From: Candidatus Levyibacteriota bacterium | GTDB lineage: Bacteria; Patescibacteriota; Microgenomatia; Levybacterales; UBA12049 | NCBI GenBank assembly: GCA_016186645.1 | Contig: JACPLF010000006.1 | Location: forward strand, 124,808 to 188,807 | DNA length: 64,000 bases | Direction of reading: 5' to 3' | Shown: one piece after another, positions 25,809-48,567 of the stretch | Numbering within the stretch: the first letter of the stretch is position 1 | Layout: each line of letters opens with the position of its first letter | Position numbers and translations under genes: made by a program | The notes under the pieces: model-generated | The model's database searches: none | What the model was told of the DNA's origin: nothing | Seen by the model: the letters and a program-made list of their open reading frames with translations, nothing else

Positions 25809-27101
25809 ATGGTAGATGGAAAAATAGTCGTAGGTGTTGATATCGGTACCTCAAAAATTGTTACTATTATTGCAAGAGTAGAGAATGAAATTGCAAATGT
25901 GTTGGGAGTTTCAGAAGTTGCCTCCCGAGGCGTTAAAAAAGGCCAAATAGTAGACATAAAAGAAGCAGTTGAATCTATTAATAATTCACTTGATGGAGCC
26001 GAAAGAATGGCTGGCTACTCTGTCTCTCATGTGGCTGCTTCAATCGGCGGAGGACATATTGAGTCTCAAAATTCAAGAGGCGTTGTTGCAGTATCATCTC
26101 CTCAAGGGGAAATAACCGAAAGTGATCTTGCTCGCGTAATTGATGCGGCTAAAGCAGTTTCTCTTCCATCGAGCCGCCAAATTGTTCATGTTTTGCCTCG
26201 TAATTATGTTGTTGATGGACAAGAAGGAATAAAAGATCCAATTAGTATGACTGGGATAAGGCTTGAGGTAGATACTCATATTATCTCAGCTGCTTCCACG
26301 TCTTTAATGAATTTAGAAAAAGCTTTTTCCCAGGTTGGTATCGATATTGATGGGGTTGCTTTCAGCGGATATGCATCCAGCCTTTCGGTTTTGTCGGAAA
26401 CGGAAAAAGAATTAGGAGTTGTATGCGTAGATATTGGAGCGGGAACAACAGACATATCGATTTATTCGGAAGGATCAGTCGCATATTCTTCCGTATTACC
26501 AATTGGCGCCAGACATATAACAAATGATTTAGCAATAGGTCTTAGAATTTCTTTGGAGAGCTCTGAAAAAATTAAAATTTATTTATCCAATACCCGAAAA
26601 AACCCAAAAATAGAAAGACTTGGAGAAACATTTGAAAAAGAAAATATAAATAGAGATGAAGTAGACTTAAGCTCTCTAGGTCTGCCGGAGGATCTTAGAA
26701 AAGTTTCTCACAAAACATTAACAGATGGAATAATTAGGCCTCGGCTTAATGAAATTTTTACCATGATAGGAATAGAAATTAAAAGGTCAGGATACGCGGG
26801 ACAAACACCTGCGGGGATTGTAATAACAGGAGGCGGAGCGTTAACTGTTGGAATAGCAGATAGCGCCAAAAGAACTTTGGCAATGCCGGTCAGAATTGGG
26901 CTGCCAATTAATATAAAGGGCCTAATTGATGAAATAGAAACCCCTGCTTTCGCAACTGTTGTAGGGCTTGCGGTTTTCGGCGGCAGTCTTGATGTGAGAA
27001 AATCTTTGCCTTTCGGAATTAGTCTTCCTTCCTTGGGAAATTTGGGATTTAACAAAGCGCTTTCCCGTCTTATAAATTTAATCAAATCCTTCATGCCATA
27101 A
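25809..27101 (+). CDS. ftsA: cell division protein FtsA
   Basis: Actin-like ATPase motifs (VVGVDIGTSKIV and CVDIGAGTTDISIY). C-terminal amphipathic ...LINLIKSFMP*. Confidence 0.85.
   Translation: MVDGKIVVGVDIGTSKIVTIIARVENEIANVLGVSEVASRGVKKGQIVDIKEAVESINNSLDGAERMAGYSVSHVAASIGGGHIESQNSRGVVAVSSPQGEITESDLARVIDAAKAVSLPSSRQIVHVLPRNYVVDGQEGIKDPISMTGIRLEVDTHIISAASTSLMNLEKAFSQVGIDIDGVAFSGYASSLSVLSETEKELGVVCVDIGAGTTDISIYSEGSVAYSSVLPIGARHITNDLAIGLRISLESSEKIKIYLSNTRKNPKIERLGETFEKENINRDEVDLSSLGLPEDLRKVSHKTLTDGIIRPRLNEIFTMIGIEIKRSGYAGQTPAGIVITGGGALTVGIADSAKRTLAMPVRIGLPINIKGLIDEIETPAFATVVGLAVFGGSLDVRKSLPFGISLPSLGNLGFNKALSRLINLIKSFMP
27081..27101. repeat. ftsA 3'-end sequence ATCAAATCCTTCATGCCATAA (copy A, inside ftsA)
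   Basis: Direct repeat with 34138-34161 and 34971-34995. Confidence 0.6.
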
Positions 27102-27143: not shown

Positions 27144-30100
27144 ATGCCAGTAGATATGACACCAGAAACAGAAAGCGGACATCATCCTAATGGAGAGGGG
27201 GGGGCAGAATCCCCTTTGCCGGAGATAAGGCTGACCCAAGTTGTTAAATCGGCATCTCCAGTTGTTCCAGAAAGAATTTTAAGGGAAAAGACCATGGAAG
27301 AAAAAGCCTTGCTCGTGCCTTACGGGGAATACACGTTTCTTATTGTAAGGGATTCCGGCAGAATTGCTCTTTTGGACGCAAATGGCAAGAATGTAGAGGA
27401 ATTTGCCAACTTGGGGTCAACGATGATTCTTGATTGGGATAGTATCAGAACGAAGAGGGTTACACGAATAACTAGATTAACAGCAGCCGGGAAAGAAGAA
27501 ATTAGTGTGCATGAATTGAAAGATCCAAAATTAAAGAGAGCGGCTAGTGAGAAATTCAGCTATTTAAACGTAGATTCTATGGAAATTCCACCTCCATGGA
27601 AATTGGACGATTCTCATCCCGGACAGATTCATTTCTCCATTTCTAGAAATGGTATTATTTTTGGCTCAGGTGAAATAGTGGGTTTTCGTACAACGGACGA
27701 GCATGATATTCCTTATCCTGTTCGAAACTGGATAAGGACAGATAATGCTAGTGTTGATTTTAAAGATAGACTGTTTTTGCAAAATATGGCGATTGGGCTT
27801 CCTACACTTACTAAAGAAGTGGCAAAATTGCCGCGCGGTGTTGATGCGTTTGGCAGAACGGAGTATATAGTAAACGCTTCGGATGAACTTACGCTTCATT
27901 TGGGTGATGACAAGAAGGTTTACTTGGGGCGCGTAGACGCGGGAGGACGTATCTGTGTTGATCCTACGGAGAAAGATGCAGTTTACTTTCTAAGCCAGCA
28001 AAATCCTACTTATTTACTCAAGATAGATGCATCAGCGGAGCGCATTTCACAGAGACAGCGATTGGAAGCTCAACATTTACCTTTCCCTAGAGATTTTGGT
28101 GCGGTTAAATCCATATCCATTGATCCGCAAGGCAGCTTTTTCATGCTAGAAACAGATAAGGGAATCGTTCTTCTGGAAAAAGGTACACTTAAGGAGTTGA
28201 AGGATGCTCCTGGTTTTTCTTCGGCGCATTTTGATTCAAAAGGAAGAATAGTTGCTCTAGATAACAATGGGTACTTTGTTATATTGCAGCCGGATTTAGA
28301 GGAGTATCGTAGAGCAATTGAAAAGGCAAAGATGGAAGGGATTGTCAGAGGAGCAACAGCGGATTTATTTGGAAAAGAAGAAGCTGAAACCGGAAAGGTT
28401 GATGTCGATAAATTTAAGCATCTGTTGCCAATAAGGACAAATTTGCAAAATGATTTCGATCCTCAGATACGTAAAATCAAAACTTTTAGTGAGACAACCG
28501 CAATTTCACGAGCTCTGGATACATTAAGATCCCGCCTTGGGTCCCAAGGACTAAATCCCGAACAAGTATTATTTATCACAAAAGGAATAGAAGAGGCAAT
28601 ACGAGCTAAACAACAGGAATTGGCTATGCCATTGGTTGTTCAAGGATTGGCGGATTTACAGGGCAAGCTTTCAGGAGACTTAACTGTAGCTGTTCTTTCT
28701 GAAGCCAGAGACGATCTTACCAAATTAAAATCTTTGGAAGGGTTCGTTGATGAAGGGACGCGCGCCAAAATAATTGCTTTGGAAAAACAATTAAGTACGC
28801 AGAGCTCTGAGTTTTTTCGTAGAGAAAGCCCGGTGATTGAAAAATATGGTAGCGATATTGTGCAAAGGGAAATAACAAGACTTGTACAGATAACAAGTAA
28901 ACCTGATTTTGACGATTGGCAAGAACATACATTGCCTCAGCAGTTAAGGAGGCTAACGGAATTGATCAATAATTATCCGCCAGACGCTCCTTCAGAGACA
29001 TTAGAGAGACTTCTGTCTTTTAGCAAGCAACTGCGGGACATGGCTAGGGAATATGAGATTAAATTTAAAGAAAGATATGCGGAGGTTCGTCAAAGGGGAT
29101 CTGTAATAATGGGTGAAAGAGTAGGATTAATTGAATCAGACATAGTTTCGTTTGCTGAAAGACTTAGAGGTAGAGGTTTTAAGGATAGGATGCAGGCAGA
29201 AACTCATATTGGATCAAGTGAGGCATTGGGAATCCTTCGATCTGACATTGAAGAGCTTGCAAGGCAAAATCCGGATGCAGCAAGAGAGTTAGATAGGACA
29301 CTGAAAGCGCAAATTGCCAACATAATGTTTGAAATTGAGCGTGGCGGGCTGACAACAATTGCAGAAACTGGTCAGCAAATGGAGTTATTTGGAAAGACTC
29401 TATTTCCAAGATGGGAAGCCCCAATCAAAGAAAAGACTCAAAAAAAAGTTGATCTTATTTTTATCCCGAATGAAAGATCAGAAGGCCCAGGAATTTCTCC
29501 AGATAGAATTTACGGCGATGTGGGGCTTGCTGTTATAAATTCACGGGGCAAGGTAGCAAGAGTAAGACTTTTTGAGGGATGGGAGAAGGAGAATGCAGTT
29601 AGATTGGGCATATTGCCTTTAATTCCACCATCCTATGTTACGTATGCTGAGTTTGGGGAAATAAGAAAGGCATATATGGACTGGAATATCGGAGAGAAAT
29701 CAAAGATTCGGCAAGAGCTTGCCCAAAGAAGCAACGTGCTTCGGGAGTGGCGAAAAGCAAGACTAGGGCAACACAAATCTCCTCAGGAAGAGGAAGAATG
29801 GAAAGACTTACTTAGAGATTATGTAAGTTTTTATGCTGAAAATTATATCTCTATTTTGCATCGTGTGGATCGTGTAAAAAAAGCTCCGGAGGGCGAGTAC
29901 GAGAATGGAAAAGGTTTTGTTCCTGAGTGGCAAAGCCATTGGACAGTAGACGAAACCACAGAGCACTATTTGGAAGAAATGGCTAAGGCTTCCGGAATGC
30001 AGCTTGATTTACAAGAAGGCTTACTTAATCTTAAGGGGCATGCGGGAACAGGAAAAGACGTACTCGTAAAAATGTTTAGCAATCGAACAAACAGGCCTTA

Positions 30101-30998
30101 TTTTACAATTGACTGCTCAAAATGGACAACAGAGTTCGAACTTTCAGAAGACGTAGTGCTTGAAGCAGAAGACGGCGCGTCAAAAACAGTAAAAGTCCCA
30201 TCAGTTGTTTTAAACGCTATAACAACCCCTGGTGCAATTATGTACTTCAATGAGATTAACGCCATGCCGGAACAGGCACAGATTTTCCTGCATGGATTAA
30301 TGGATGAAAAAAGAACATTGACTCTCAAAACAAGTTCGGGAAAAGCGGTTAAAACTTTGCCTAGTGTGCTTTTGATGGGGTCGATGAATCCGGGATATCC
30401 GGGCACGTTTAATCCCCAATTTGCAACTAAGAGTAGAATGGTTGGACTAGAAATAGATTACCCTCCATTATATGGAGAAAGAGGAACAAACGATCCTAAT
30501 CCAAACCCTCCAATAAGCGCTGCTGAGGCATTACGGGTTGCTCGACAAGTTGATTCATTGGCTGATTTTACCTATGAAGCCAATCCTAAGCACAATGAAT
30601 TCGTACGAATATGGGACAGGTATGTTAATGGGATTCAAAATGGAGCGCCTGACTTAAATCAAGTACAAAGATTTGATGTTGAAGCTATTTTGACAATGGT
30701 GGAGTTTGCACAAAAACTTAGGGAAGGATTTATACTGAAGTTTGAAAAAGCAAGGGCATCGTCAATTCCTAAGGGAACACTTTTAGTTGATCAGCCAATA
30801 ACAGGAAGAGAAATGAGAAGAATGGCTTACTTTTTAAGCAAAATGTCTCCAGAGGAAAAGGCAACAGCTAATCCAGAAGCAGTAATAAGAAGTCTTATTG
30901 AAAGATTCTTCCTGTCCCATATTGATAAGAAAGATGAGAGGGATGAAATAAGAACAGCAATGGCTACTTGGACGTCGTCCAAGAGACCGGCAGCTTAG
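27144..30998 (+). CDS. giant (1284 aa) protein with a C-terminal MoxR/AAA_5-class AAA+ ATPase domain and a roughly 900-aa unassigned N-terminal region
   Basis: P-loop GHAGTGKD, Walker-B-like IMYFNEIN, FLHGLMDEKRTLT and sensor region LLMGSMNPGYPGT align to MoxR-family signatures. No signal peptide. Confidence 0.65.
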   Translation: MPVDMTPETESGHHPNGEGGAESPLPEIRLTQVVKSASPVVPERILREKTMEEKALLVPYGEYTFLIVRDSGRIALLDANGKNVEEFANLGSTMILDWDSIRTKRVTRITRLTAAGKEEISVHELKDPKLKRAASEKFSYLNVDSMEIPPPWKLDDSHPGQIHFSISRNGIIFGSGEIVGFRTTDEHDIPYPVRNWIRTDNASVDFKDRLFLQNMAIGLPTLTKEVAKLPRGVDAFGRTEYIVNASDELTLHLGDDKKVYLGRVDAGGRICVDPTEKDAVYFLSQQNPTYLLKIDASAERISQRQRLEAQHLPFPRDFGAVKSISIDPQGSFFMLETDKGIVLLEKGTLKELKDAPGFSSAHFDSKGRIVALDNNGYFVILQPDLEEYRRAIEKAKMEGIVRGATADLFGKEEAETGKVDVDKFKHLLPIRTNLQNDFDPQIRKIKTFSETTAISRALDTLRSRLGSQGLNPEQVLFITKGIEEAIRAKQQELAMPLVVQGLADLQGKLSGDLTVAVLSEARDDLTKLKSLEGFVDEGTRAKIIALEKQLSTQSSEFFRRESPVIEKYGSDIVQREITRLVQITSKPDFDDWQEHTLPQQLRRLTELINNYPPDAPSETLERLLSFSKQLRDMAREYEIKFKERYAEVRQRGSVIMGERVGLIESDIVSFAERLRGRGFKDRMQAETHIGSSEALGILRSDIEELARQNPDAARELDRTLKAQIANIMFEIERGGLTTIAETGQQMELFGKTLFPRWEAPIKEKTQKKVDLIFIPNERSEGPGISPDRIYGDVGLAVINSRGKVARVRLFEGWEKENAVRLGILPLIPPSYVTYAEFGEIRKAYMDWNIGEKSKIRQELAQRSNVLREWRKARLGQHKSPQEEEEWKDLLRDYVSFYAENYISILHRVDRVKKAPEGEYENGKGFVPEWQSHWTVDETTEHYLEEMAKASGMQLDLQEGLLNLKGHAGTGKDVLVKMFSNRTNRPYFTIDCSKWTTEFELSEDVVLEAEDGASKTVKVPSVVLNAITTPGAIMYFNEINAMPEQAQIFLHGLMDEKRTLTLKTSSGKAVKTLPSVLLMGSMNPGYPGTFNPQFATKSRMVGLEIDYPPLYGERGTNDPNPNPPISAAEALRVARQVDSLADFTYEANPKHNEFVRIWDRYVNGIQNGAPDLNQVQRFDVEAILTMVEFAQKLREGFILKFEKARASSIPKGTLLVDQPITGREMRRMAYFLSKMSPEEKATANPEAVIRSLIERFFLSHIDKKDERDEIRTAMATWTSSKRPAA

Positions 30999-31013
30999 TT
31001 ATGCAATACAGAT

Positions 31014-34000
31014 ATGGATATGGATACAGAAAGAGGAGAAATACCGCGACCTCCGCAGAAAGATGGACTTGCTAGAGAAAAAATTTTTCTCGCAGAGCAA
31101 GCCTCGGAAGGTGATTTAAAAGTAGTCCCCGGAAAAAATTGGGCGTTCCACTATCCTCACGGTGCGCAAGCACGATCTGATGCCATTTCTGGTCTGCTTG
31201 ATGGGCGGACTAAGCCGGAAGATGTACTTGGTGATTTAAAACCAGACGCCTTTACCTATGATGTTGCTGATCTTGAACATCAAGGTTTAGTTTCGGTTGC
31301 TGGAAGAGTTAGAGATGTTTCGGCATATGTAACTCATTATGATTATTCCCGATTTGCTCAGTTTGTAGCTAGCTTGCAGGGAACAGGTATAACTCCTGAT
31401 ACAGCTCAATCTCTTTATGATGGTATAGCTCAAAACAGAATCCGTAAAAAAATGATCGAGGCTTATGGATATACAGGCAGAAAGCAAATGGAAGAAGCTC
31501 TTAAGTTGGAAGCAGAGAGAGCTGTACAGCAAATTGGCAGCCTTCCTCGCGTTGAGAAAGTGTTGGCGGCCTTAAAAATGAACTGGATGGCCGAAGATCA
31601 GCTTGCTAGAACTGAGCAAAGAGATCAAACAGTAGGACAACTGTCTCCTGATGAGCGTCAGCTTTATGATCTGCTGAGAGATCCTTACCAAGACTACGTA
31701 AGAAGGGGTGATCAATCTGCTTATGAAAGTTTGGTAAATGGGGTAAAAGAGAATATCCCTAAAATTCAACAAGAGCCAGAGAAGCCAGAGGAACCGCAAA
31801 GGGATGAAGCTCAGGAGAAGCTTGAAGAAGAATTGGAAGAATATAAAGATGAAGCGGTGCCGCCCGTTACTCCTGGAGATCCGGGAATTCCGCCTGAAGA
31901 TTCTGACGAATACCATACTCCTTCATCTCCCCCATGGGAATCTGAAGAGGAAGCATCTTCCCATCCGTATTTTGAAATAACTCCAAATGGAACGAGTACT
32001 AAGCCAATGACAGGATATTATGCAAGCGGCAGAAAAAGCCATTACGACATTGATCAAAAAACATGGAGTAAGAAAAAGCAACTCGTTTCTTATGGTGCAA
32101 ATATAAATGGGAATGAAAGGCAAACTATTTCGGCAACAGTAGGCAAGGGGCTTACATCTATACCTATACCAAATGGGTACGGATTGGATATGCAGTCTCT
32201 CAAATTCACAGGTGACAGGCCTGAAATTTTCAGAGATCAAAATGGATGTTTTTATATAAAAACTGATGGAGGCAGTACGTTTTCAATAGATTTCTTAAAA
32301 GAAAATCCTGTTTTTTCTGGTTCCCCAATAGCAGATGATATAGTGCCTATCCATAGAGGACAGCTTTCTATAGAGACGGAAAACGCAATGACTGGTTTAG
32401 TTGGCAGCGATTTAGAAAAAGCAGAAGCGCTTCGCAAATATTTACTCTCAAAACATTTTTATCCCGGCGATGGTGATTTGCAAATGGCGCAGGCTTTGCA
32501 GCTTAAGCTAAGAAGTGAGTCTGCAGGAGACAATTATATTCAAAATCTTGACAAATCGGAGTATCTTGAATGCTATTCTGCGAATACGCTTTTTATAGCA
32601 ATGCTCAGGAAAATTGGTATTCCCGCAAGATTAGTTATTGGCCACCGAGTAGAAAACGCAAAAAATGGCAAAGCAAGCATTAATTCAACTACCGGTCACG
32701 CTTGGACTGAAGTATGGGATGGTAGTGCTTGGAGAAGAATGGATGCAACGCCACGACCAAAACAGCAAAAGAAAGATCAAAAGGGCGATTCAAATTCTCC
32801 TACTCAGGAAGCGCAGGATGGAGGGATTGAAGGACAAGGTCAGCCACAGCAAGATCAACCTCAGCAGGGGCAAGGTAGTCAATCTGGCGAGTCAATGCCA
32901 GGTCAGCAAATGGGTGAAGCTTCCGACCAAGACATAGCTCAAGGAGAATCACAACTTGACAATGCCCAACAATTTTCGGAGCATTTGGAGCAGGAAAAGC
33001 AAAGCTTAGACCAAAAACTTGAAAATGCGGAGTCCTTCCAAGATTTAAAGAAGTTAGAGCAGGAAGCTCAGGAGTCTGATTTGTTTGATGACATGAAACA
33101 AGATTTACAAGACAGGTTAGAAGCAAAAGAGGAGCAGATGAAAGAAGCAATTAAAGAAAATCTTGATGAAATGGTACAAGACGGATTTTTAGATGAGGAG
33201 AGGAGACAGGAACTTGAGAGACAGCTTGAAGAAAATAAATTAGAAGAACTCGATCGAATTAGACAGCAAATTGAGCGGGAAAGCAGGTTATTTAATGAGT
33301 ACCAAGATATCAAGGAAGAAGTAGCGCCTTTGGTTGATCAGTGGTTTGATTACTTTGTAGAACGATTGCCAAGGCAGAAAGAAGTTGAGCTGGATGAAGA
33401 TTCACTTACCCGACAGGGGGCTTTCAATAGACATTCTGTAATGAAACCAAGGAATTTGCTTTTCGGAACTGTTAAAAATCCCCGAGTTATTAAGCCGTCA
33501 ATTAAACCAAAATTTTTAGCTTCAGTTATGGTTGACGTAAGCGGTTCAATGGCTGGAGAGAAGTTAAATATGGCAAGGAAACAATTGGTTTTCTATAATG
33601 AACTCTTTTCAAGGATTAGCAGTGAATTTGGTTTTATAAGGTATGCAAATAACATCTTTTCTGATAATTTAGTTGAACTCAAAACTTACGATCAAGATTA
33701 TGAAAGTCCTGTAAGATACGATTGGGGAGATGGTACTCGGTCAACAATTAAAGCGCGTCTTATGCAAGCGCTTCATACACAAGGAGGGACAAATATGCTC
33801 CCGGCAATTCAAAAAGCAGCAGCAGATTTAAATAAAGAAACATTTGAGTATCCAGATTATGCTTCTGCTTTTTATTTTGTTGGAGATGGGGAAGATACAT
33901 CTGGAAATTCAGCGAGAATTAAAGAGTTTTTAGGATTACTGGATTCTGAACATGGATTCGGAGAACATATGCTATCAGCAATAATGCTAGGAGATGAATC

Positions 34001-34136
34001 TCAAAGAAGAGGATTGGCCGCTATTTTTGGAGATGAACATACAACAGTTGCTCCAGATTTTGAAGCTTTGATCGAACAAAGTATGTACAAATTTGATGAA
34101 GACATAGAAGCGTATTTACGAGATAAAACTATATAA
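31014..34136 (+). CDS. giant (1040 aa) transglutaminase-like, coiled-coil and von Willebrand factor A (MIDAS) fusion protein
   Basis: Transglutaminase core Cys-His-Asp context (ECYSANTLFIAMLRKIGIPARLVIGH...GHAWTEVWDG...RMDATP). Q/E/D-rich low-complexity linker and a heptad-like charged region. vWA MIDAS motifs DVSGSM, GGTN and GDGEDT. Confidence 0.7.
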   Translation: MDMDTERGEIPRPPQKDGLAREKIFLAEQASEGDLKVVPGKNWAFHYPHGAQARSDAISGLLDGRTKPEDVLGDLKPDAFTYDVADLEHQGLVSVAGRVRDVSAYVTHYDYSRFAQFVASLQGTGITPDTAQSLYDGIAQNRIRKKMIEAYGYTGRKQMEEALKLEAERAVQQIGSLPRVEKVLAALKMNWMAEDQLARTEQRDQTVGQLSPDERQLYDLLRDPYQDYVRRGDQSAYESLVNGVKENIPKIQQEPEKPEEPQRDEAQEKLEEELEEYKDEAVPPVTPGDPGIPPEDSDEYHTPSSPPWESEEEASSHPYFEITPNGTSTKPMTGYYASGRKSHYDIDQKTWSKKKQLVSYGANINGNERQTISATVGKGLTSIPIPNGYGLDMQSLKFTGDRPEIFRDQNGCFYIKTDGGSTFSIDFLKENPVFSGSPIADDIVPIHRGQLSIETENAMTGLVGSDLEKAEALRKYLLSKHFYPGDGDLQMAQALQLKLRSESAGDNYIQNLDKSEYLECYSANTLFIAMLRKIGIPARLVIGHRVENAKNGKASINSTTGHAWTEVWDGSAWRRMDATPRPKQQKKDQKGDSNSPTQEAQDGGIEGQGQPQQDQPQQGQGSQSGESMPGQQMGEASDQDIAQGESQLDNAQQFSEHLEQEKQSLDQKLENAESFQDLKKLEQEAQESDLFDDMKQDLQDRLEAKEEQMKEAIKENLDEMVQDGFLDEERRQELERQLEENKLEELDRIRQQIERESRLFNEYQDIKEEVAPLVDQWFDYFVERLPRQKEVELDEDSLTRQGAFNRHSVMKPRNLLFGTVKNPRVIKPSIKPKFLASVMVDVSGSMAGEKLNMARKQLVFYNELFSRISSEFGFIRYANNIFSDNLVELKTYDQDYESPVRYDWGDGTRSTIKARLMQALHTQGGTNMLPAIQKAAADLNKETFEYPDYASAFYFVGDGEDTSGNSARIKEFLGLLDSEHGFGEHMLSAIMLGDESQRRGLAAIFGDEHTTVAPDFEALIEQSMYKFDEDIEAYLRDKTI

Positions 34137-34137
34137 A

Positions 34138-34161
34138 CTCGTCAAATCCTTCCTGCCCTAA
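34138..34161. repeat. ftsA 3'-end-like direct repeat copy B (CTCGTCAAATCCTTCCTGCCCTAA)
   Basis: Non-coding copy 2 nt after the vWA gene stop. Would encode LVKSFLP*, compared with the ftsA C-terminus IKSFMP*. Confidence 0.6.
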
Positions 34162-34183: not shown

Positions 34184-34627
34184 ATGATCGAAAGACAGCC
34201 CTATGTGGAGCGTTATCAGGTCATGACTCCGCAGCAACGAAATGCGGAAATGAAAGGGTTATTTGCACTTCTTCCAGATGCCGACGTAACTTGGTCAGCT
34301 TTTCAGGGATTATTAGAATTGTTACAGCCCGAGGATATAAAAGAAAGACTTGCTTCTATAGATCTACATTTTGCAGAGAAAAAAGATATTTCTGATCATA
34401 GGAGAGCTTCTGTATTAAGACAGAATTTGACCGTGCGGCTAAATACTCTGTTGTCTTTTTCAATGATTACAGATGCCTTTAAAGTCTGTATCGCTGATGT
34501 GTTTAATCACAATTTTGACGTAGGCGTAAGTGAAGAAACATTAGTAGGTTGGATATTCCCCAGTGGAAGAAAATGGTATGCAGATTTGTTCCAATGGGAC
34601 CAATTAGAGAACGGTGGGATATTTTGA
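34184..34627 (+). CDS. hypothetical protein (147 aa)
   Basis: ORF lying between repeat copies B and C. No motif recognised. Confidence 0.35.
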   Translation: MIERQPYVERYQVMTPQQRNAEMKGLFALLPDADVTWSAFQGLLELLQPEDIKERLASIDLHFAEKKDISDHRRASVLRQNLTVRLNTLLSFSMITDAFKVCIADVFNHNFDVGVSEETLVGWIFPSGRKWYADLFQWDQLENGGIF

Positions 34628-34970: not shown

Positions 34971-34995
34971 CTTCGTCAAATCCTTCATGCCATAA
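34971..34995. repeat. ftsA 3'-end-like direct repeat copy C (CTTCGTCAAATCCTTCATGCCATAA)
   Basis: Non-coding copy about 60 nt upstream of purN. Preceded by the 14-bp palindrome TACGCTATAGCGTA at 34922-34935. Confidence 0.6.
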
Positions 34996-35056: not shown

Positions 35057-35785
35057 ATGAAAGAAAGATTGGCGACTTTAATTTCAGGGGGCGGTACCAC
35101 AATGCAAGCAATCATAGAAGCTTGTCAATCCGGAGAAGTTCCAATGGATATTGCTTGTGTTATTTCCAGCAGTCCTACTGCTGGCGGAATAGAAAAAGCA
35201 AAGCGCTTAGGAATTCCGGACAAAGATATTGTTGTGATTGATCCAAATAAATTTAAGGGTAGAGATAAAAAAATGGATCAAGACGCATTCGGTTTTGCAA
35301 TTTTACAAACACTACGAAAACGCGGGGTAACTGTTGTTACTCAAAATGGCTGGCTGCCCCTAACTCCACAAAGTGTTATAGATGAATATTCAGATGCGAT
35401 ATTTAATCAACACCCAGGCCCGGTACCGGAATTTGGAGGCAAAGGAATGTATGGGAGAAGAGTGCATGCCGCAAGATTGTTGTTTGTTCGGGAAACGAGA
35501 AGAAATTTTTGGACAGAGGCTATTGCTCAAAGAGTCCATAGAAATTTTGATCAAGGATCAGCAGTTAAATCTGAGCAAGTTGATATTCTTCCGGATGATA
35601 CAGCTGAAGATTTACAAAAAAGAGTTTTGCCAATTGAGCATCGAGTGCAAATTGAATTACTTAAGGATGTTGCTCGCGGCAATGTTAAGGAAGTAACAGG
35701 AAGGGAAAAACTTGTACGTCCCGGAGAAGAAAGAATTTTATTTCAGGCAAAAAAAGCAGCAAGATTATTGTATCCGTATGGATAA
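35057..35785 (+). CDS. purN: phosphoribosylglycinamide formyltransferase PurN-like
   Basis: N-terminal ISGGGTTMQAII loop and formyl-transferase fold order. 242 aa. Confidence 0.7.
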   Translation: MKERLATLISGGGTTMQAIIEACQSGEVPMDIACVISSSPTAGGIEKAKRLGIPDKDIVVIDPNKFKGRDKKMDQDAFGFAILQTLRKRGVTVVTQNGWLPLTPQSVIDEYSDAIFNQHPGPVPEFGGKGMYGRRVHAARLLFVRETRRNFWTEAIAQRVHRNFDQGSAVKSEQVDILPDDTAEDLQKRVLPIEHRVQIELLKDVARGNVKEVTGREKLVRPGEERILFQAKKAARLLYPYG

Positions 35786-36893
35786 ACGCAGGGGAAAGAA
35801 AATAACGTATAAATCATCAGGAGTTAATTATCAGGATTTGGATCCTGTGAAAAAACTTGCGCAAAAGGGAGCTTTAAAAACTGCGAGAAATCTTAGGAAA
35901 AACGGATATAAAGAAATTTCTGAGAGCCGAGGAGAATCTGCATTTGTTTGGCAGCAAGGTAATTTTTTGATGGCATCTGTCATTGAAGGACTTGGAACGA
36001 AAAATCTTGTTGCAGATATAACAGCGCAAATTACCGGCAAATCTTATTACGATATTATTGGCCACGATACTGTTGCAACAATAATAAATGATCTGATTGC
36101 TGTCGGAGCAAAACCGTTGACTATAAGTGCGTATTGGGCGGTAGGCCAAAGCGATTGGTTTAAGAATAAAAAAAGGACAAAAGATTTAATAAGGGGATGG
36201 AAAAGAGCATGCAATCTGGCGGGTGTTACGTGGGGCGGCGGAGAAACGCCAACTCTAAAAGGAATAATTCGGGAAGAATCAATAGATCTGGGAGGGTCTG
36301 CGATTGGAATTATTTCTCTAAAGAAAAATCTTATTACGGATAAAAAATTAAAAATTGGCGATAGAATAATACTTTTAAGAAGCAATGGAATAAATGCAAA
36401 TGGATTGTCATTGGCCCGAGCGCTTGCAAAAAATTTACCAAAAGGTTATGCAACAAAACTTCCAAGTGGAAAAATTTATGGAGAAGCGCTTCTTGCAAAA
36501 ACAAATATTTATGCAAAATTAATACAGGATTTGCTAAATGCAGGAATTGACATTCACTATATTTCAAACATAACAGGACATGGACTGCGAAAAATAATGC
36601 GGGCTCGTTTAAATTTTACTTATATAATTGAAAAAATATTTAATCCTCAAGAAATATTTTTATTTATCCAAAAGCACGCAAATTTATCCTCTTACGAAAT
36701 GTATCAAACATTCAATATGGGAATGGATTATGCTTTATTTATTCCTAAAAAAGATATTGAAAAAGCACAAAAAATTATAACTAAAAATAAATTGGAAAGT
36801 ATAGATGCCGGACGAGTTGAGGAAGGAAAAAAACAAGTTGTGATAAAACCAAAAAACATTATTTTTAATGCAGAGACATTGGGAGTTAGATAA
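35778..36893 (+). CDS. purM: phosphoribosylformylglycinamidine cyclo-ligase (AIR synthase) PurM-like
   Basis: Collinear PurM motifs (YKSSGVNYQDL, IEGLGTKNL, GGGETPTLKG, NITGHGLRK and MYQTFNMGMDY). ATG overlaps the purN stop (ATGGATAA). Confidence 0.75.
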   Translation: MDKRRGKKITYKSSGVNYQDLDPVKKLAQKGALKTARNLRKNGYKEISESRGESAFVWQQGNFLMASVIEGLGTKNLVADITAQITGKSYYDIIGHDTVATIINDLIAVGAKPLTISAYWAVGQSDWFKNKKRTKDLIRGWKRACNLAGVTWGGGETPTLKGIIREESIDLGGSAIGIISLKKNLITDKKLKIGDRIILLRSNGINANGLSLARALAKNLPKGYATKLPSGKIYGEALLAKTNIYAKLIQDLLNAGIDIHYISNITGHGLRKIMRARLNFTYIIEKIFNPQEIFLFIQKHANLSSYEMYQTFNMGMDYALFIPKKDIEKAQKIITKNKLESIDAGRVEEGKKQVVIKPKNIIFNAETLGVR

Positions 36894-36949: not shown

Positions 36950-38062
36950 ATGTTAATAAAGCCTCAAACAACAAATTTCGCAAAGATTAGGGTCATGGGG
37001 ATTGGCGGAGGGGGAATGAATGCCCTTAACTCTATGATTACCTCAAGCGAAGTCAAGGGTGTAGATTTTATTTCAGTTAATACAGATGCGCAGGTTCTTC
37101 TTTTATCCAAAGCCCAAACAAAAATCCAAATAGGTGAAAATTTGACAAAAGGACTAGGAAGCGGGGGAAATCCGGATATAGGACGTCAGGCTGCAGAAGA
37201 ATCTTACGAAAAAATAAAGGAATTTATTGATGGATCGGACATGGTTTTTATAACTGCGGGTATGGGAGGCGGAACAGGAACCGGATCAAGTTCTGTTATT
37301 GCTAGAGCGGCAAAAGAAATCGGAGCTCTGACAGTTGCAGTCGTCACCAAGCCTTTCGCTTTTGAAGGAACCAGAAGAATGGTGGCAGCAGAAGATGGAA
37401 TAGAGGAGCTTCGGGAAAAAGTCGATACATTAATCGTTATTCCAAATCAGAGAATTTTGGATGTTGTTGATAAGAAAGTTTCTCTTCTTGAAGCTTTTAG
37501 AATTGCAGATTCCGTATTAACTCAAGGAGTACAGGGAATTTCGGATTTAATTACCATTCCGGGCCTAATCAATGTTGATTTTGCTGATGTAAAAGCAATT
37601 ATGAGTTCTGCTGGATCAGCTCTTATGGGAATTGGAACCGGATCTGGGGAAAATAGAGCACAAATTGCAGCAAGATCGGCAATCGCATCTCCTCTTTTGG
37701 AAATTTCTATGGATGGAGCGCGCGGAGTCTTGTTTAATATTACCGGAGGACCTGATTTGACAATGACAGAGGTTGATGACGCAGCCAAAATTATTTCAGC
37801 AGCAGCAGATCCGGATGCGAATATTATTTTCGGCGCCACAATTGATGAGGCAATGCATGACCAGATAAAAATTGCAGTTATCGCAACCGGATTTGATCAC
37901 ACCCGCCAAACTCTCAAAGAATTTGTAAAGCCAATTGTGAATATGGCACCCTTGAAGATTGAAGTTAAAGATAGCCAAGAGCCAACGCCACAGGAGCCTC
38001 CTCAGGAGGACAATAACGACGACGCCTGGGACATTCCCGCTTTTTTGAGGCAGAGGAATTAA
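36950..38062 (+). CDS. ftsZ: cell division protein FtsZ
   Basis: Tubulin signature GGGTGTG, N-terminal [14 protein letters not shown] and C-terminal conserved peptide [10 protein letters not shown]. Confidence 0.9.
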
Positions 38063-41176: not shown

Positions 41177-41228
41177 TAAATCTATGTTCACCCCGTTACA
41201 GATACGGGGAAGTTTTATTGTTTTGTTT

Positions 41229-44180
41229 ATGAAAAAAGATAAATCTGTAACGGGGTTCAAGCCTGTAAATCCCAAAGTTGATTTTCCAAAATTGGAGAGA
41301 GATCTTCTTGAAAAATGGTACAAAAGCGGAATTGTTGATAAATATTTAAAGAAAAATAGCTCTTCGAAAGAAAAGTTTTCTTTTCTAGATGGTCCAATAA
41401 CTGCAAATAATCCAATGGGCGTTCATCATGCATGGGGAAGAACATATAAAGATTTTTGGCAAAGATTTTGGAATATGAATGGAAAAAAACAAAGATTTCA
41501 GAACGGATTTGACGAGCAAGGACTTTGGGTGGAAGTAGAAGTAGAAAAAGAATTAGCACTCAGAAATAAAAAAGAAATAGAAAATCTTATTCCCGGCGAC
41601 AAATTCAAGAGCTTGGAAAAATTTATTAATCTTTGCAAGGAGAGGGTAAAAAAATTTTCTGCGATCCAAACGGAACAATCAAAAAGACTTGGGTATTTTA
41701 TGGATTGGAACAATTCTTACCATACTTCTTCTGATGCAAATAATTACGCAATTTGGAATTTCCTAAAAGTTGTCAATGAGAAAGGTTGGTTGTACAAAGG
41801 ACATGATACAGTTCCTTGGTGTCCAAGGTGTGGAACTGCAATCTCTCAGCACGAAATTCTAACTGAAGATTATAGGGTTGTTAATCACGAAACCGTCTTA
41901 TTTAAATTACCTGTTTTGAATGAAGATTATAGTTTGCTTGTTTGGACAACAACCCCATGGACGATTCCAGCAAACGTCTCTGTGGCTGTTAACCCAAAGT
42001 TTAAATATAGAGTCTGGGAATATAAGGGTGAAAAGCTAATCATTGTTTCTCCAGATGAAATAAGAAAAAAAGGAAAAAGTTCGGAATATGATACTGAGCA
42101 ATTTCAGTGGTACGAAGACAATATAATCAAGGCAGGTTTTGAACATAAAGGAGGAGTTGACGATATTGACGGTAAAGACTTAGTCGGTAAAAAATATAAA
42201 GGTCCATTTGATTCTCTCGCTAGGGTTGAAAAGGCTAAGCTTGAAAACCCCGAGACTTTCCACGTTATTGTTGCTGCAGAAGACTTGGTAGTTGGAAATA
42301 AAGGAACTGGATTGCTTCATCTGGCTCCTGCGGCTGGGGAGGAAGACTTTAAAATTGCTAAGGATAAAAAGTTATCAATAATTGAAGTTATAGATGAAGA
42401 AGCAAATTATTTAAATGATATGGGCGAATTCAGTGGAAGAAACGCCAAGAAACATCCAGAAATAATTGTGGATTTCTTGAAGAATAAGGAGGATGGCAAA
42501 TTTCTCCATGCAACACCCAAAATTGAGCATCGTTATCCAATTTGTTGGAGATGTAAAAAGGAGCTTGTTTGGAGAGTAGTTGATGAATGGTATATAGCAA
42601 TGGACCGCCCTTCGCTTAAAGCTTCGGACGGCAAATCAACCTTCAGAGAAATGATGATAGGAGTTGCAAGAAAAATCACTTGGATGCCGGATTGGGGATT
42701 AGATCGTGAGTTGGATTGGCTCAAGAATATGCACGATTGGCTTATTAGTAAAAAAAGATATTGGGGACTAGCTTTACCCATTTGGGAATGCAATAAATGT
42801 GGAAATTTTGAAGTAATTGGCTCAAAAGATGATTTGAAAAATAAAGCTGTTGAAGGATGGAAAAAGTTTGAGGGCAATAGTCCACATAGGCCATGGGTGG
42901 ATCAAGTAAAAATTAAATGCAGTAAATGCGGTGAAAAAATTTCAAGAATTCCAGATGTGGGAAATCCTTGGCTTGACGCTGGAATTGTTCCCTTCTCAAC
43001 TTTGCCAAATGAATGGTTCCCGGCAGATTTTATTACGGAAAGTTTTCCGGGACAATTTAAGAATTGGTTTTACTCTTTAATTGCAATGAGCACGGCACTA
43101 AAAAATACAAACTCTTTTGAGAGAGTGCTTGGGTTTGGATCTGTAAGAGATGAAAAAGGAGAAGAAATGCACAAGAGTAAAGGTAATTCCATTGAATTTA
43201 ATGAAGCGGCAGACAAGGCAGGAGTAGATGTTATGAGGTGGTTATATCTTAGAACAAATCCTGAGCATAATGTAAATTTTGGATACGGAGTCCTAGATGA
43301 ATTGAGACGCATGTTCGTTATAAAACTGTGGAATGTATATAGTTTTTTTGTGACTTACACGAATTTTTACAAATTTGATCCTTCCAAAATGGAATTTGAA
43401 TCCGAAAGCATTTTGGATAAGTGGATATTGTCTAGAATGAACGGAAGTATTTCAAATATAACTCGTTCTGTAGAAAAATACGATGCCATGGATGCAATGG
43501 GGTTGATAGAAATATTTATTGATGATCTTTCCAATTGGTATGTGAGGAGAAGTAGGGAAAGAGTTAAAGAAAATAGTCAAGATGCAAAGGATACTCTAAA
43601 GACTTTATGGACTGTATTAACTACTTATTCTAAAGTGCTTGCTCCGTTCGTGCCGTTTATGTCTGACGAAATTTTTACAAATCTTACAGCTGAGGAATCA
43701 GTTCACTTATCTGATTGGCCAAAGTCCAACTCAAAACTAATTGTGAATGAACTGGAAAAACAAATGGCCTGGGCCAGAGTTATATCTTCGGGAATTTTAG
43801 AGCTTCGTAAGTCTAACAATATCAAAGTTAGGATTCCGCTTCGTGAATTAAATTATAACGGACCAGTAGAATTATCAAAAGAAATCTTACAAATAGTCCT
43901 TGAAGAAACAAATGTCTATAAATTGAAGTACATTGGTAAAAAGGATGAATTTGGTTTGGGGGGCGATGTGGATGAGGAAAATCAAGATATTGATGCTGGG
44001 GAAGCAAGAGATATTGTTAGAAGAATTCAAGCCGAGAGAAAAACATTAGGTACGACATTTGATGAAAAAGTAAATGTAATTATTGAAAATTGGCCAAAAG
44101 AATTTGAAGAAGATATAAAGAAAAAAGCGATGGTCGGGAGTCTGCAAAAAGGTCCGAAATTCCTAGTTACTCGCAAATGA
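41229..44180 (+). CDS. ileS: isoleucine--tRNA ligase (type 2, Zn-finger containing)
   Basis: Class I motifs (PMGVHHAWG, KSKGN), editing domain and CxxC zinc knuckles (CPRCGT, CWRCKKEL). An alternative start lies at 41184. Confidence 0.9.
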   Translation: MKKDKSVTGFKPVNPKVDFPKLERDLLEKWYKSGIVDKYLKKNSSSKEKFSFLDGPITANNPMGVHHAWGRTYKDFWQRFWNMNGKKQRFQNGFDEQGLWVEVEVEKELALRNKKEIENLIPGDKFKSLEKFINLCKERVKKFSAIQTEQSKRLGYFMDWNNSYHTSSDANNYAIWNFLKVVNEKGWLYKGHDTVPWCPRCGTAISQHEILTEDYRVVNHETVLFKLPVLNEDYSLLVWTTTPWTIPANVSVAVNPKFKYRVWEYKGEKLIIVSPDEIRKKGKSSEYDTEQFQWYEDNIIKAGFEHKGGVDDIDGKDLVGKKYKGPFDSLARVEKAKLENPETFHVIVAAEDLVVGNKGTGLLHLAPAAGEEDFKIAKDKKLSIIEVIDEEANYLNDMGEFSGRNAKKHPEIIVDFLKNKEDGKFLHATPKIEHRYPICWRCKKELVWRVVDEWYIAMDRPSLKASDGKSTFREMMIGVARKITWMPDWGLDRELDWLKNMHDWLISKKRYWGLALPIWECNKCGNFEVIGSKDDLKNKAVEGWKKFEGNSPHRPWVDQVKIKCSKCGEKISRIPDVGNPWLDAGIVPFSTLPNEWFPADFITESFPGQFKNWFYSLIAMSTALKNTNSFERVLGFGSVRDEKGEEMHKSKGNSIEFNEAADKAGVDVMRWLYLRTNPEHNVNFGYGVLDELRRMFVIKLWNVYSFFVTYTNFYKFDPSKMEFESESILDKWILSRMNGSISNITRSVEKYDAMDAMGLIEIFIDDLSNWYVRRSRERVKENSQDAKDTLKTLWTVLTTYSKVLAPFVPFMSDEIFTNLTAEESVHLSDWPKSNSKLIVNELEKQMAWARVISSGILELRKSNNIKVRIPLRELNYNGPVELSKEILQIVLEETNVYKLKYIGKKDEFGLGGDVDEENQDIDAGEARDIVRRIQAERKTLGTTFDEKVNVIIENWPKEFEEDIKKKAMVGSLQKGPKFLVTRK

Positions 44181-45253
44181 AAAAGTCATTATTTAATATT
44201 GATTGGGGATTGATCGCTCCGGTGATTATTTTGATCATTTTAAGCCTCACCACTCTGTTTTCAGTAGATTTTTCTTTATTTAAAAGCCAGTTGACGTTTT
44301 TTATTCTTGGAATTTTTGCATTTATGTTTTTTTCTCAGACCAATTATAAAAGCATAAAAATATATTCAGCACCTATATACATAGTTTCTATTGTTTTATT
44401 GCTGATCGTTTTAATTGTAGGTTTGGAAACAAGGGGATCAGTTAGGTGGATAGAGCTTTTGGGTTTTAGGGTACAATTTTCGGAAATTCTCAAACCTTTT
44501 CTAGCGATTTCTCTTGCCTCGTATTTGTCTTCCGGAAATAATTACTCTCTAAGAACAGCATTCATAGCAACTTGTTTTTTGATGCCGATATTTTTTTTGG
44601 TATTCTTGCAGCCTGATTTGGGAAATGCCTTGATCTACTTCCTAGTCACTGCTTTAACTTTTCTCATCTTTGGTTTTCCTCTGAGAATCTTTCTCTCAGG
44701 AATAGTCATATTAACGATTCTGTCTCCTATAATCTGGAAATTTTTACATGATTACCAAAGACATCGCGTGCTTACTTTCTTGAATCCCAATGATCCATTG
44801 GGCTTGTCTTACAACGCTATTCAGTCGGTCATAGCAGTTGGATCGGGGATGCTTTTTGGACGTGGGTTGGGTTTGGGGACCCAGTCTGGTCTTCGGTTTC
44901 TTCCCGAAAGGCACACTGATTTTATTTTCGCAACATTGTCTGAGGAATTAGGCTTGATCGGGTCTACTTTGGTAGTTCTGACATTTGCATTTTTGTTGTA
45001 TAGAATTTTTGTAATTTTTATAAATCAAGAAGATTTATTTGGGAAAATATTTTCTATTGTGGCATTTTCGCTGATTTTTTTTCAATTCTTCGTAAATATC
45101 GGCATGAATATAGGCATTCTTCCAATAGTTGGAATTACTTTGCCTTTCGTATCCTATGGAGGAAGTTCTTTGCTTTCCAGCTTTATCCTCTTGGGAATAC
45201 TTTCCTCAATGAGTAGAGGGGATGCCTCGAAAAAAGTTCTGGAAATTAGATAA
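44177..45253 (+). CDS. rodA: SEDS family protein RodA-like (second FtsW/RodA paralogue)
   Basis: Polytopic SEDS fold motifs (LQPDLGNALIYF and DFIFATLSEELGLIG). Confidence 0.75.
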   Translation: MKKSLFNIDWGLIAPVIILIILSLTTLFSVDFSLFKSQLTFFILGIFAFMFFSQTNYKSIKIYSAPIYIVSIVLLLIVLIVGLETRGSVRWIELLGFRVQFSEILKPFLAISLASYLSSGNNYSLRTAFIATCFLMPIFFLVFLQPDLGNALIYFLVTALTFLIFGFPLRIFLSGIVILTILSPIIWKFLHDYQRHRVLTFLNPNDPLGLSYNAIQSVIAVGSGMLFGRGLGLGTQSGLRFLPERHTDFIFATLSEELGLIGSTLVVLTFAFLLYRIFVIFINQEDLFGKIFSIVAFSLIFFQFFVNIGMNIGILPIVGITLPFVSYGGSSLLSSFILLGILSSMSRGDASKKVLEIR

Positions 45254-47696: not shown

Positions 47697-47758
47697 CTCA
47701 GTGGTAGAGCGCCTCGCTCACATCGAGGAGGTCGTTGGTCCAATTCCAACGTCGTCCA
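47687..47758 (+). tRNA. tRNA-Val (anticodon CAC)
   Basis: Manual cloverleaf. Acceptor GGACGAC/GTCGTCC, D-arm GCTC-AGTGGTA-GAGC, anticodon arm CCTCG-CTCACAT-CGAGG, T-arm GTTGG-TCCAATT-CCAAC. The T-loop is atypical and there is no encoded CCA. Confidence 0.55.
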
Positions 47759-47760
47759 CT

Positions 47761-48567
47761 ATGAGTAGGTGTTTGATTTGTAAATCCAATAATAAATACC
47801 CACTTTGCTCTAAGTGTGCAAAAAAACCCTTTTTGGTTGAAAGAGCAAGACAAATTCTTGCCAGCATAAATGATTTGGAGTTCTTGAAAAAAACATATAA
47901 TTTAAGATATGCTGAAATTAAGAATTTAAATACTCCTAAATTTTGGAATAAACTGCTATTTGATACAACAAATTTACAAGCTCAGGATGGAATGACAAAA
48001 GACAGAGTAAAAACTTCTTTTAAATTCTTGTCCAGGAATGCAAAAAAGATTCTAGATATAGGAGCGGGAAACGGGTTTGTAGAAGAGTTGATTGGAAAAA
48101 ATAAAGGCATTAAGATTTATGGCAATGATATATCAAGCATTGCAGTCAGAAAATTAAAAGAAAGATTTAAAGGAGATTTCAAAAAAGAATCACTATATTC
48201 AATGAAATATCCCAAAAAATCTTTTGATAGCATTTTTATGCTTGAGGTTTTGGAACATATTGCGCCCAGCAAGGTTTTCAGCGTGCTAAAGAAAGTCAGG
48301 GAAATTTTGAGAAAGAAGGGATCTTTGATAGTTTCAATTCCGACTAATGAGGGTTTGGAAAAGAAGAGAGATAATCTCAGCGGACATTTAAGAACGTATA
48401 CGGAAAATTTAATTAGAGCGGAGCTAAAAATAGCAGGATTTAAAGTTGTAAAATTAAAAACCCTCTATGCATTTAAAAATTTTTATAATTTTAAAAAAAT
48501 CTCAGCAAAAATTCTGAGAAAAAGATGGCAGCCTAACGATATCGTAATTTTAGCAAAACCTGAATGA
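47761..48567 (+). CDS. class I SAM-dependent methyltransferase
   Basis: Motif I ILDIGAGNGF and motif post-II. Start moved to the first Met after the tRNA (the track ORF start overlaps the tRNA). Confidence 0.6.
   Translation: MSRCLICKSNNKYPLCSKCAKKPFLVERARQILASINDLEFLKKTYNLRYAEIKNLNTPKFWNKLLFDTTNLQAQDGMTKDRVKTSFKFLSRNAKKILDIGAGNGFVEELIGKNKGIKIYGNDISSIAVRKLKERFKGDFKKESLYSMKYPKKSFDSIFMLEVLEHIAPSKVFSVLKKVREILRKKGSLIVSIPTNEGLEKKRDNLSGHLRTYTENLIRAELKIAGFKVVKLKTLYAFKNFYNFKKISAKILRKRWQPNDIVILAKPE

Follow-up and report, generated by a model that had tools for sequence, protein, structure and literature searches.

What are two adjacent giant genes doing between the cell-division genes ftsA and ftsZ of a bacterium from the Candidate Phyla Radiation (CPR; Patescibacteria)? 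The genes lie in a 64,000-nucleotide (nt) stretch of DNA from Candidatus Levyibacteriota bacterium (GenBank assembly GCA_016186645.1, contig JACPLF010000006.1, positions 124,808 to 188,807), which was analyzed as a whole and is referred to below as the window. One gene encodes a MoxR-class AAA+ ATPase and the other a protein with a transglutaminase-like domain and a C-terminal von Willebrand factor A (vWA) domain. We conclude that the pair is a conserved two-gene family restricted to CPR bacteria. It probably constitutes a self-contained two-protein MoxR-AAA+/vWA machine, in which a motor in the style of NorQD, CbbQO and midasin controls a transglutaminase-fold effector. We also consider it fairly probable that CPR bacteria have long carried the pair as an accessory module, largely vertical in descent and often lost.

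Coordinates and translations agreed with the initial annotation of this DNA, made from its letters and open reading frames (ORFs), which had reported ORFs of 1284 and 1040 amino acids (aa) set 15 nt apart:

27144–30998, + strand: gene for the AAA+ protein (protein 1), 1284 aa; ORF and translation
31014–34136, + strand: gene for the transglutaminase–vWA protein (protein 2), 1040 aa; ORF and translation

An alternative start of protein 1, the ATG at 27156, is the one picked by gene callers on other contigs of the same organism.

A conserved two-gene family of CPR bacteria

We examined the pairing of the two genes at fetched loci of relatives, designated by L-numbers; the taxon labels of several of these metagenome-assembled genomes (MAGs) are unreliable. 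A protein 1 orthologue lay directly upstream of protein 2, on the same strand, in 47 of the 47 loci with upstream DNA, usually across a gap of 4–27 nt. Clustering of about 500 flanking ORFs revealed no third gene family common to more than 4 of 43 loci, and we therefore take the system to consist of these two genes. The architecture is fixed, since all orthologues are collinear and carry the same domains; full-length protein 1 orthologues span 1260–1450 aa.

Searching a library clustered at 90% identity gave 171 relatives of protein 2 at E ≤ 0.001, distant paralogues included. The best 120 of these 171 were 50–100% identical and nearly all full-length, and the named sources were Levy-, Roizman-, Taylor-, Kerfeld- and Magasanikbacteria and Paceibacterota. 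From a scan of one genome per species, the best 80 of 160 relatives were kept (75 loci), and all informative titles among the kept loci belonged to CPR bacteria; generic MAG labels, such as ‘uncultured Gammaproteobacteria’, were taken as placeholders. For the N-terminal region of protein 1, an exhaustive phmmer search of 1.84 billion representative proteins (clusters at 50% identity) identified 107 relatives, all of which were ~1265–1390 aa long with the same architecture, or fragments thereof. A word-indexed homology search, a tool that reaches very long proteins poorly, returned only protein 1 itself for the full-length query and only fragments of ≤1011 aa for its C-terminal 585 aa; protein 1 orthologues were drawn from the fetched loci and not from this search. 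The pair was found in only some 48 of the species genomes, a rough count, and by GTDB the collection contains thousands of CPR species.

Purifying selection on the pair is strong. Between the window and a second Levybacterium (L001), protein 2 is 71% identical, compared with 77% for FtsZ, 75% for MraY and 68% for FtsA. The suspicion that the pair might be undescribed was supported by full-text literature searches, which returned no description of it. NCBIfam held no model for it and gave nothing specific, and PADLOC likewise held no model and produced only a weak hit to TerY, a vWA protein.

Protein 1 couples a CbbQ/NorQ-type AAA+ module to a giant N-terminal region

Protein 1 divides into two parts:

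27144–29966, + strand: N-terminal ~940 aa, of no known family; AlphaFold secondary structure, no Pfam or PDB match
30030–30440, + strand: AAA_5 core (MoxR, CbbQ/NorQ-type); Pfam, CbbQ/NorQ alignment, 37 orthologues and Foldseek

The MoxR/AAA_5 signatures noticed at the C-terminus were borne out by a Pfam match to AAA_5 over residues 963–1099 (E 3.6e-15). CbbQ and NorQ were the nearest solved relatives in a sequence search of the PDB (E ~1e-11 to 1e-12), and they were also the best structural matches of the AlphaFold model (Foldseek E 1e-11, target TM-score 0.73–0.80). Together with GvpN, these two ATPases make up a subgroup of the MoxR class. The Walker A motif is G965-HAGTGK971-D972, Walker B is YF-N1036-E1037, the sensor-1 residue is N1082 and the arginine finger is R1098. 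In the alignment with CbbQ, GHAGTGKD stands against GPTGCGKS, GAIMYFNEIN against GAICYLDEIV and GSMNPGY against ISYNPGY; in the arginine motif, TKSRMVGLEIDYP of protein 1 stands against TKQRFTGFEFDYP of CbbQ. The sensor-1 Asn and the arginine finger lie in an NPGY...TKxR...DYP context that matches both CbbQ and NorQ, and the lid and C-terminal helices of the module extend to residue 1284. Protein 1 retains the Walker A Lys, the catalytic Glu, the sensor-1 Asn and the arginine finger, and these four residues (K971, E1037, N1082 and R1098) are invariant in 37 orthologues.

The first ~900 aa had been described as free of recognizable motifs, and they stayed so under more sensitive comparison: residues 1–960 matched no Pfam family and no PDB sequence, even when searched as a 37-sequence profile. 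Plectin, FliK, lactonase and COPA propellers surfaced as chance-level Pfam/PDB profile hits only and were rejected as relatives. In the AlphaFold model of protein 1 (mean predicted local distance difference test score, pLDDT, 73), the first ~250 residues are of low confidence. A beta-rich, blade-like region follows at ~248–381, then long helices at ~385–734, a beta domain at ~745–834 and a helical segment at ~834–914, after which the AAA+ module begins.

Protein 2 combines a transglutaminase-like core with a vWA/MIDAS domain

Four regions were delimited in protein 2, whose AlphaFold model had a mean pLDDT of 82:

31071–31778, + strand: helical N-terminal domain, residues ~20–255; pLDDT 80–90, many invariant residues
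31971–32753, + strand: beta-sandwich (~320–430), then transglutaminase-like core (~440–580; C520, H562, D577)
32766–33515, + strand: linker region, comprising a disordered Q/E/D/G-rich stretch (~585–635), charged long helices (638–785) and a further segment (785–834)
33513–34121, + strand: C-terminal vWA domain with a metal-ion-dependent adhesion site (MIDAS), residues 834–1036; motif and predicted structure

No Pfam family matched the helical N-terminal domain in any of the 37 members. Transglut_core matched residues 519–578 (E 1.2e-12; 48.5 bits against a cut-off of 23) and was found in all 37 orthologues. The Cys-His-Asp triad is present in 36 of them; C520 is replaced by Tyr in the remaining one, and H562 and D577 are invariant. 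TgpA was the best structural match of the core in the predicted structure. The transglutaminase core of the initial annotation is thus real in its Cys, His and Asp residues but central (~440–580) rather than N-terminal. The Q/E/D/G-rich linker and charged helical region that it had described were both seen in the AlphaFold model, and residues 785–834 are conserved in sequence and disordered in the model.

The C-terminal vWA domain with its MIDAS residues had likewise been read from the sequence. Window protein 2 scored 23.3 bits against VWA_2, under the gathering cut-off of 27; the family was matched at E ≤ 0.1 in 37 of 37 orthologues, with a best value of 8.8e-06. The Pfam score being sub-threshold, the vWA call therefore stands by conserved motif and predicted structure: D841-x-S843-x-S845, T926 and D958 are invariant in the 37 orthologues, and the predicted domain is structurally nearest the VWA domains of midasin and NorD, midasin being the closest. 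Within it lies a conserved insert at about residues 891–911, and the C-terminus of protein 2 is conserved too. Neither protein contains a hydrophobic segment of membrane-span or signal-peptide length, in keeping with the earlier call that signal peptides are absent, and both are cytoplasmic.

A probable AAA+/vWA motor with a transglutaminase-fold effector

In NorQD, as seen by cryo-electron microscopy, NorD inserts a finger of its VWA domain into the hexamer pore of NorQ, its C-terminus sits on the post-sensor-1 loop, and its linker is twisted and stretched as ATP is turned over; the authors propose this mode as general for AAA+/VWA pairs, including CbbQO and midasin (PMC13036017). Our pair resembles NorQ–NorD and CbbQ–CbbO in having adjacent genes and an AAA module that is nearest to theirs in sequence and structure, and protein 2 resembles NorD and CbbO in its order of N-terminal working part, linker and C-terminal vWA/MIDAS domain. 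Because the ATPase module is of the NorQ/CbbQ type and the VWA domain is most like the finger-bearing domains, with a conserved insert, C-terminus and linker, we propose that a ring of protein 1 grips the vWA domain of protein 2.

Protein 1 would form a hexameric ring via its single CbbQ/NorQ-type AAA+ module. The vWA/MIDAS domain of protein 2 would dock on this ring, probably through a finger inserted into the central pore and through its conserved C-terminus. ATP binding and hydrolysis would then twist or stretch the conserved linker of protein 2, together with its long helices and acidic disordered stretch, and this movement would activate, position or release the TgpA-like transglutaminase/thiol-peptidase domain and the N-terminal helical domain. 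These two domains would act on a putative cytoplasmic protein target; the MIDAS site may capture it, as may the large N-terminal region of protein 1 with its beta-rich and helical parts, or the two may do so together. Every step past domain identity and gene linkage is our inference.

Several points weigh against this mechanism. Contact between the two proteins is suggested by gene linkage and by analogy only, and the insert at ~891–911 is a candidate pore-inserting finger by its conservation and secondary structure rather than by superposition on NorD. The nucleotide site is deviant: Walker A reads GxxGxGK-D, with Asp for Ser/Thr, and Walker B reads hhYF-N-E, with Asn for Asp, so that protein 1 departs from the canonical GxxGxGK[S/T] and hhhhDE, and does so invariantly in 37 orthologues. 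ATP might therefore be bound and hydrolyzed slowly or not at all. Transglutaminase-fold domains include peptidases, cross-linkers and inactive binding modules. The description of the beta-rich region of protein 1 as ‘propeller-like’ is tentative, because the N-terminal ~250 residues are modeled poorly. Finally, the rarity of the pair was estimated by pattern- and word-limited searches and may be overstated.

The substitutions at the nucleotide site (30034–30059 and 30237–30260; residues 965–972 and 1032–1039) are paired as well as invariant, and we know of no described MoxR protein with the GK-D plus N-E combination. The swap might conserve magnesium coordination. Judged from its residues, the site should still bind nucleotide and would probably hydrolyze it.

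The pair also differs from the nearest described systems. NorQ and CbbQ are about 270 aa long, whereas protein 1 carries an N-terminal extension of ~940 aa; Walker A has GKD and Walker B has NE; the partner bears a transglutaminase fold and long helices. No gene for a target such as nitric oxide reductase (NOR) or Rubisco is linked to the pair, which is CPR-restricted. Midasin (MDN1/Rea1) shares with the pair AAA_5-type modules, a D/E-rich region and then a C-terminal MIDAS domain. It is, however, a single chain with six AAA modules, whereas the pair has one module per chain and places the MIDAS on the second protein; midasin has no transglutaminase domain, and no sequence-level similarity between it and the pair was detected.

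MoxR/DUF58/TgpA operons are found in Pseudomonas, Actinobacteria and other bacteria and, like the pair, unite a MoxR ATPase with vWA-like and transglutaminase-fold functions. They comprise three genes instead of two, and Pfam searches of the window and the 37 orthologues gave no DUF58 match in the pair. TgpA is membrane-anchored and periplasmic, whereas protein 2 has no membrane segment and possesses a true MIDAS motif.

A second arrangement of the same three domains, which we call ‘type B’, occurs as two adjacent genes in CPR bacteria (Doudna-, Berkel- and Uhrbacteria):

L058: 9467–12055, ‘type B’ locus
L064: 9149–14905, ‘type B’ locus
L076: 9287–14284, ‘type B’ locus

Here the order is reversed, with a transglutaminase–vWA protein of ~860–900 aa preceding an AAA_5 protein of 765–1035 aa; both proteins are shorter, and the ATPase has its AAA domain close to the N-terminus. 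The two pairs are distantly related: their transglutaminase regions share 34% identity (E 2e-26), and their ATPases are barely alignable. The ‘type B’ loci of SR1 bacteria (L052–L054) are known from tblastn hits and genetic-code-25 ORFs only. At L058, the gene directly upstream of the ‘type B’ pair encodes a reverse transcriptase; at L064, a DUF3800 gene is found ~775 nt upstream.

Changing genomic positions and an unlikely housekeeping role

The initial annotation placed the pair as an insertion between ftsA and ftsZ. Both genes do flank it, and relic ends of ftsA show insertion, but the two flanking genes are not separated by the pair alone:

25809–27101: ftsA, left flank of the pair; library match
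36950–38062: ftsZ, right flank of the region; library match
27082–27101, + strand: R1, last 20 nt of ftsA (...KSFMP and stop), left edge of a 7040-bp unit
34142–34161, + strand: R2, relic ftsA 3′ end, 2 mismatches to R1, 5 nt past the protein 2 stop
34976–34995, + strand: R3, second relic ftsA 3′ end, 0 mismatches, ahead of purN

The upstream cluster runs mraZ, rsmH, ftsI, mur ligases, murA, glmS, Fic, mraY, ftsW, murG, ftsQ-like, ftsA and then the pair. Downstream of the pair come a 147-aa ORF, a purN-like gene, a purM-like gene and ftsZ, so that ftsA and ftsZ are five genes apart and not two. Promoter and terminator scanning gave nothing above the shuffled expectation and is neutral on whether the pair forms a separate transcription unit.

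The same order, ftsA–pair–ftsZ, occurs in another Levybacterium (L001/L005), where L001 has no repeats. The closest relatives by protein identity hold the pair elsewhere (L004, L079, L081). L004 is the closest species-representative genome; its pair occupies the opposite strand, with fusA and rpsG on either side (3726–14405). Genes of the str operon are contiguous in most bacteria, and the pair at this position thus splits the operon. At L079 it precedes a peptidase M1 gene and a tRNA-Leu gene, and at L081 it adjoins HTH_3 and Prim-Pol genes. Other sites follow secY (L022), trmD (L021), clpB (L030) and rplM–rpsI (L002), and at L014 the pair stands between a TIG-domain protein gene and pnp. L034 and L035, which are 82% identical in nucleotide sequence over the pair, differ in its placement: the pair interrupts a tRNA array in L034 (Leu-Lys/pair/Leu-Cys), whereas in L035 the four tRNA genes are contiguous and the pair sits beside them.

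These positions bear on the idea that the pair is a housekeeping factor for assembly or maturation of the division apparatus or for ribosome biogenesis. The same-strand arrangement with short gaps between ftsA and ftsZ, here and in L001/L005, speaks for it, as do the sites at rpsG/fusA (L004), after secY (L022) and after rplM–rpsI (L002), the closeness of the MIDAS domain to that of midasin and the strong purifying selection. However, only a small minority of CPR lineages have the pair, which is therefore not generally needed for division or ribosome assembly. The neighbors differ in nearly every genome, and in L004 the pair is on the strand opposite to the str operon. Moreover, the core-operon positions look like insertion sites because duplicated gene ends occur there. 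We regard a housekeeping role as distinctly unlikely.

Insertion footprints at the ends of core genes

The ftsA 3′ 20-mer occurs three times in the window, against an expectation of 0.00 in shuffled sequence. Read in frame up to the stop codon, R1 gives ...LIKSFMP, R2 ...LVKSFLP and R3 ...FVKSFMP, and FtsA of L001 ends in ...FLKSFLP. Since they encode FtsA-like C-termini, we identify R2 and R3 as relic ftsA ends. The repeats delimit a 7040-bp unit, in which the two genes and no others lie, and a second unit of 834 bp with ORFs of 147 and 69 aa; this layout is like that of a cassette array at the ftsA 3′ end.

Comparable footprints were identified at three other loci. At L021, an 87-nt repeat (90% identical; 5909–5995 and 13068–13154) copies the trmD 3′ end and brackets a 7072-bp unit. 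A 65-nt repeat (98% identical; 5690–5754 and 13255–13319), intergenic in the tRNA array of L034, brackets a 7500-bp unit. At L022, a perfect 37-nt repeat of the first adk codons (13124–13160 and 13949–13985) brackets an unrelated 190-aa ORF adjoining the pair. Across genomes, the bracketed units measure 0.8 or 7.0–7.5 kb. A 72-nt repeat at L004 (79% identical) was discounted as a footprint, as it also encloses rpsG and the next gene and contains a hairpin. At most other loci, no flanking repeats were found, and no integrase, transposase or other mobility gene was found in the bracketed units; those around the pair hold the two genes only.

We read the repeats as traces of integration at core-gene ends, with relocation of the pair as a 7.0–7.5 kb unit. 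This pattern points to an uncharacterized insertion mechanism at core-operon junctions, and the duplicated ends may be a general trait of CPR genome dynamics and not a property of the pair. A bolder reading would make the pair a CPR-only machine, in which an AAA+/MIDAS motor, midasin-like but split, powers a transglutaminase-fold effector, and which travels as a bare, integrase-less two-gene cassette. Such a cassette would insert at core-gene ends and tRNA arrays (ftsA, trmD and adk-side junctions) with target duplications of 20–90 bp. We consider this combination unlikely.

Composition and phylogeny suggest an old resident

The relic ends raise the question of whether the pair is a foreign island that arrived recently and parted ftsA from a once adjoining ftsZ, as the initial annotation had supposed. 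Relic ftsA 3′ ends follow protein 2 and precede purN, the closest relatives by protein identity hold the pair elsewhere, and the overall GC content of the pair is 0.41 against 0.355 in the rest of the window; all three would fit a recent arrival. Yet ftsA and ftsZ are equally GC-rich, and GC content at third codon positions (GC3) is 0.33 and 0.29 in the two genes, as in the rest of the window (mean 0.298 ± 0.036), with 0.52–0.56 at first positions. The supposed ‘GC-richer block’ is therefore an effect of amino-acid composition, because GC3 is native and the excess lies in first codon positions, as is also the case for ftsA and ftsZ.

Other evidence also runs counter to a recent arrival. Across 35 genomes with flank GC of 0.32–0.62, the GC of the pair tracks that of its flanks (r = 0.91, mean difference −0.004). 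In a neighbor-joining tree of protein 2, Microgenomates, Parcubacteria and Peregrinibacteria form separate groups, so the tree is congruent with CPR groups, and the relatives are CPR only. The Levybacterium with a 71% identical protein 2 shows the ftsA–pair–ftsZ order without repeats. The inserted unit holds no integrase or transposase, and we found the pair on no phage, plasmid or IMG/VR viral contig. Native GC3, host-tracking GC, a taxonomy-like tree and the lack of a phage, plasmid or viral carrier together disfavor a recent foreign origin, which we judge highly improbable. The initial annotation had held that a clade-wide ftsA–pair–ftsZ arrangement of flank-like composition would mark the genes as core and vertically inherited: the arrangement is not clade-wide, whereas GC3 is flank-like. 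An old accessory module that passes largely vertically and is often lost accounts, in our estimation, for these observations better than not, and we hold this view with moderate confidence.

Relation to MoxR–vWA conflict systems

A further question is the biological role of the pair. Kaur et al. (2020) described MoxR–vWA conflict systems in which effectors, rarely transglutaminase-like peptidases, are fused to the vWA protein; some of these systems contain beta-propellers, and their distribution is patchy (PMC7159879). The pair could accordingly be a CPR-specific member of this kind, in which the AAA+ protein's N-terminal region senses an invader and ATP releases the transglutaminase-like effector. 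This alternative concerns the role only, and its mechanics could equal those of the motor proposed above.

The likeness to the MoxR–vWA ternary conflict systems lies in the MoxR plus vWA core, the vWA-fused effector and the patchiness, and precedent exists in systems with vWA-fused effectors (PMC7159879). The distribution of the pair is patchy (171 relatives in the 90% library, 107 for the protein 1 N-terminal region when clustered at 50%, and some 48 genomes at one per species), its position varies even between close relatives, and insertion footprints flank it. Of 42 loci, 10 have a tRNA gene no farther than 1 kb from the pair, and some neighbors are typical of mobile or defense loci: HTH_3 genes (L002, L021, L081), DUF3800, PIN and a zeta-toxin-like kinase, as well as an AbiEii-like AAA_15/AAA_21 protein and Prim-Pol.

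Set against this are several differences. The pair has no third component (VMAP, iSTAND or FtsH), its architecture is fixed with an invariant rather than a variable effector, and it is highly conserved, protein 2 being about as conserved between the two Levybacteria as FtsZ and MraY (71% versus 77% and 75%). Its beta-rich region is on the ATPase, whereas the beta-propeller of the ternary systems is fused to the vWA protein. Apart from the weak TerY (vWA) hit, PADLOC gave no match; the tree follows taxonomy, GC is ameliorated to the host, and most genomes have ordinary housekeeping neighbors around the pair. CPR bacteria, the hosts of the pair, are a group that was not scored in the survey of conflict systems (PMC7159879). 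On balance, we consider a defense role possible but doubtful.

Other genes of the window

The 147-aa ORF (34184–34627), directly 3′ of protein 2, matched nothing in Pfam and lacks relatives at every fetched locus, and it is also present in the same organism from two other samples (L082, L083). As a candidate member of the system it was ruled out: it is missing at all other loci and is unrelated to the small ORF adjacent to the pair in L022. The purN-like and purM-like genes occupy 35057–36893, with a 74-nt overlap in mechanical ORF calls; both score under the NCBIfam equivalog cut-offs, and the related L001 has neither of them at this site. Genes for purine synthesis are unusual among CPR bacteria.

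Between 15886 and 21736, murA, a nucleotidyltransferase gene, a GNAT acetyltransferase gene, glmS and a Fic-domain gene are scattered through the division and cell-wall cluster. As these genes are interspersed, the ftsA/ftsZ junction is not the only one in the cluster with extra genes. A second FtsW/RodA-family gene (44177–45253) follows a class-I aminoacyl-tRNA synthetase gene (41184–44180). The region 47701–64000 is a low-GC block (0.27–0.35) and compositionally the most deviant part of the window. It is a surface-glycan cluster: besides a methyltransferase and a Polysacc_synt flippase, it encodes several glycosyltransferases of the GT1, GT2 and GT4 families and five or more membrane glycosyltransferases of the PMT_2 type.

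Implications for CPR biology

With the pair, the MoxR–vWA principle of NorQD, CbbQO, RavA–ViaA and midasin is extended to another lineage and takes on a new architecture. New in this architecture are the giant N-terminal region of the ATPase, the transglutaminase-fold domain on the vWA partner and the invariant pair of Walker A and Walker B substitutions. As a bacterial relative of midasin's MIDAS arrangement, spread over two chains, the pair is open to biochemical study. The duplicated gene ends around the pair and around unrelated small ORFs suggest a route by which accessory genes enter CPR genomes. If the integrase-less cassette reading were true, it would mean a new conflict or host-interaction system, an unknown mechanism of cassette insertion in CPR bacteria, or both. 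CPR genomes are only ~1 Mb in size, yet some of them spend 7 kb on this pair and keep it under strong purifying selection, which implies that it serves an important lineage-specific function.

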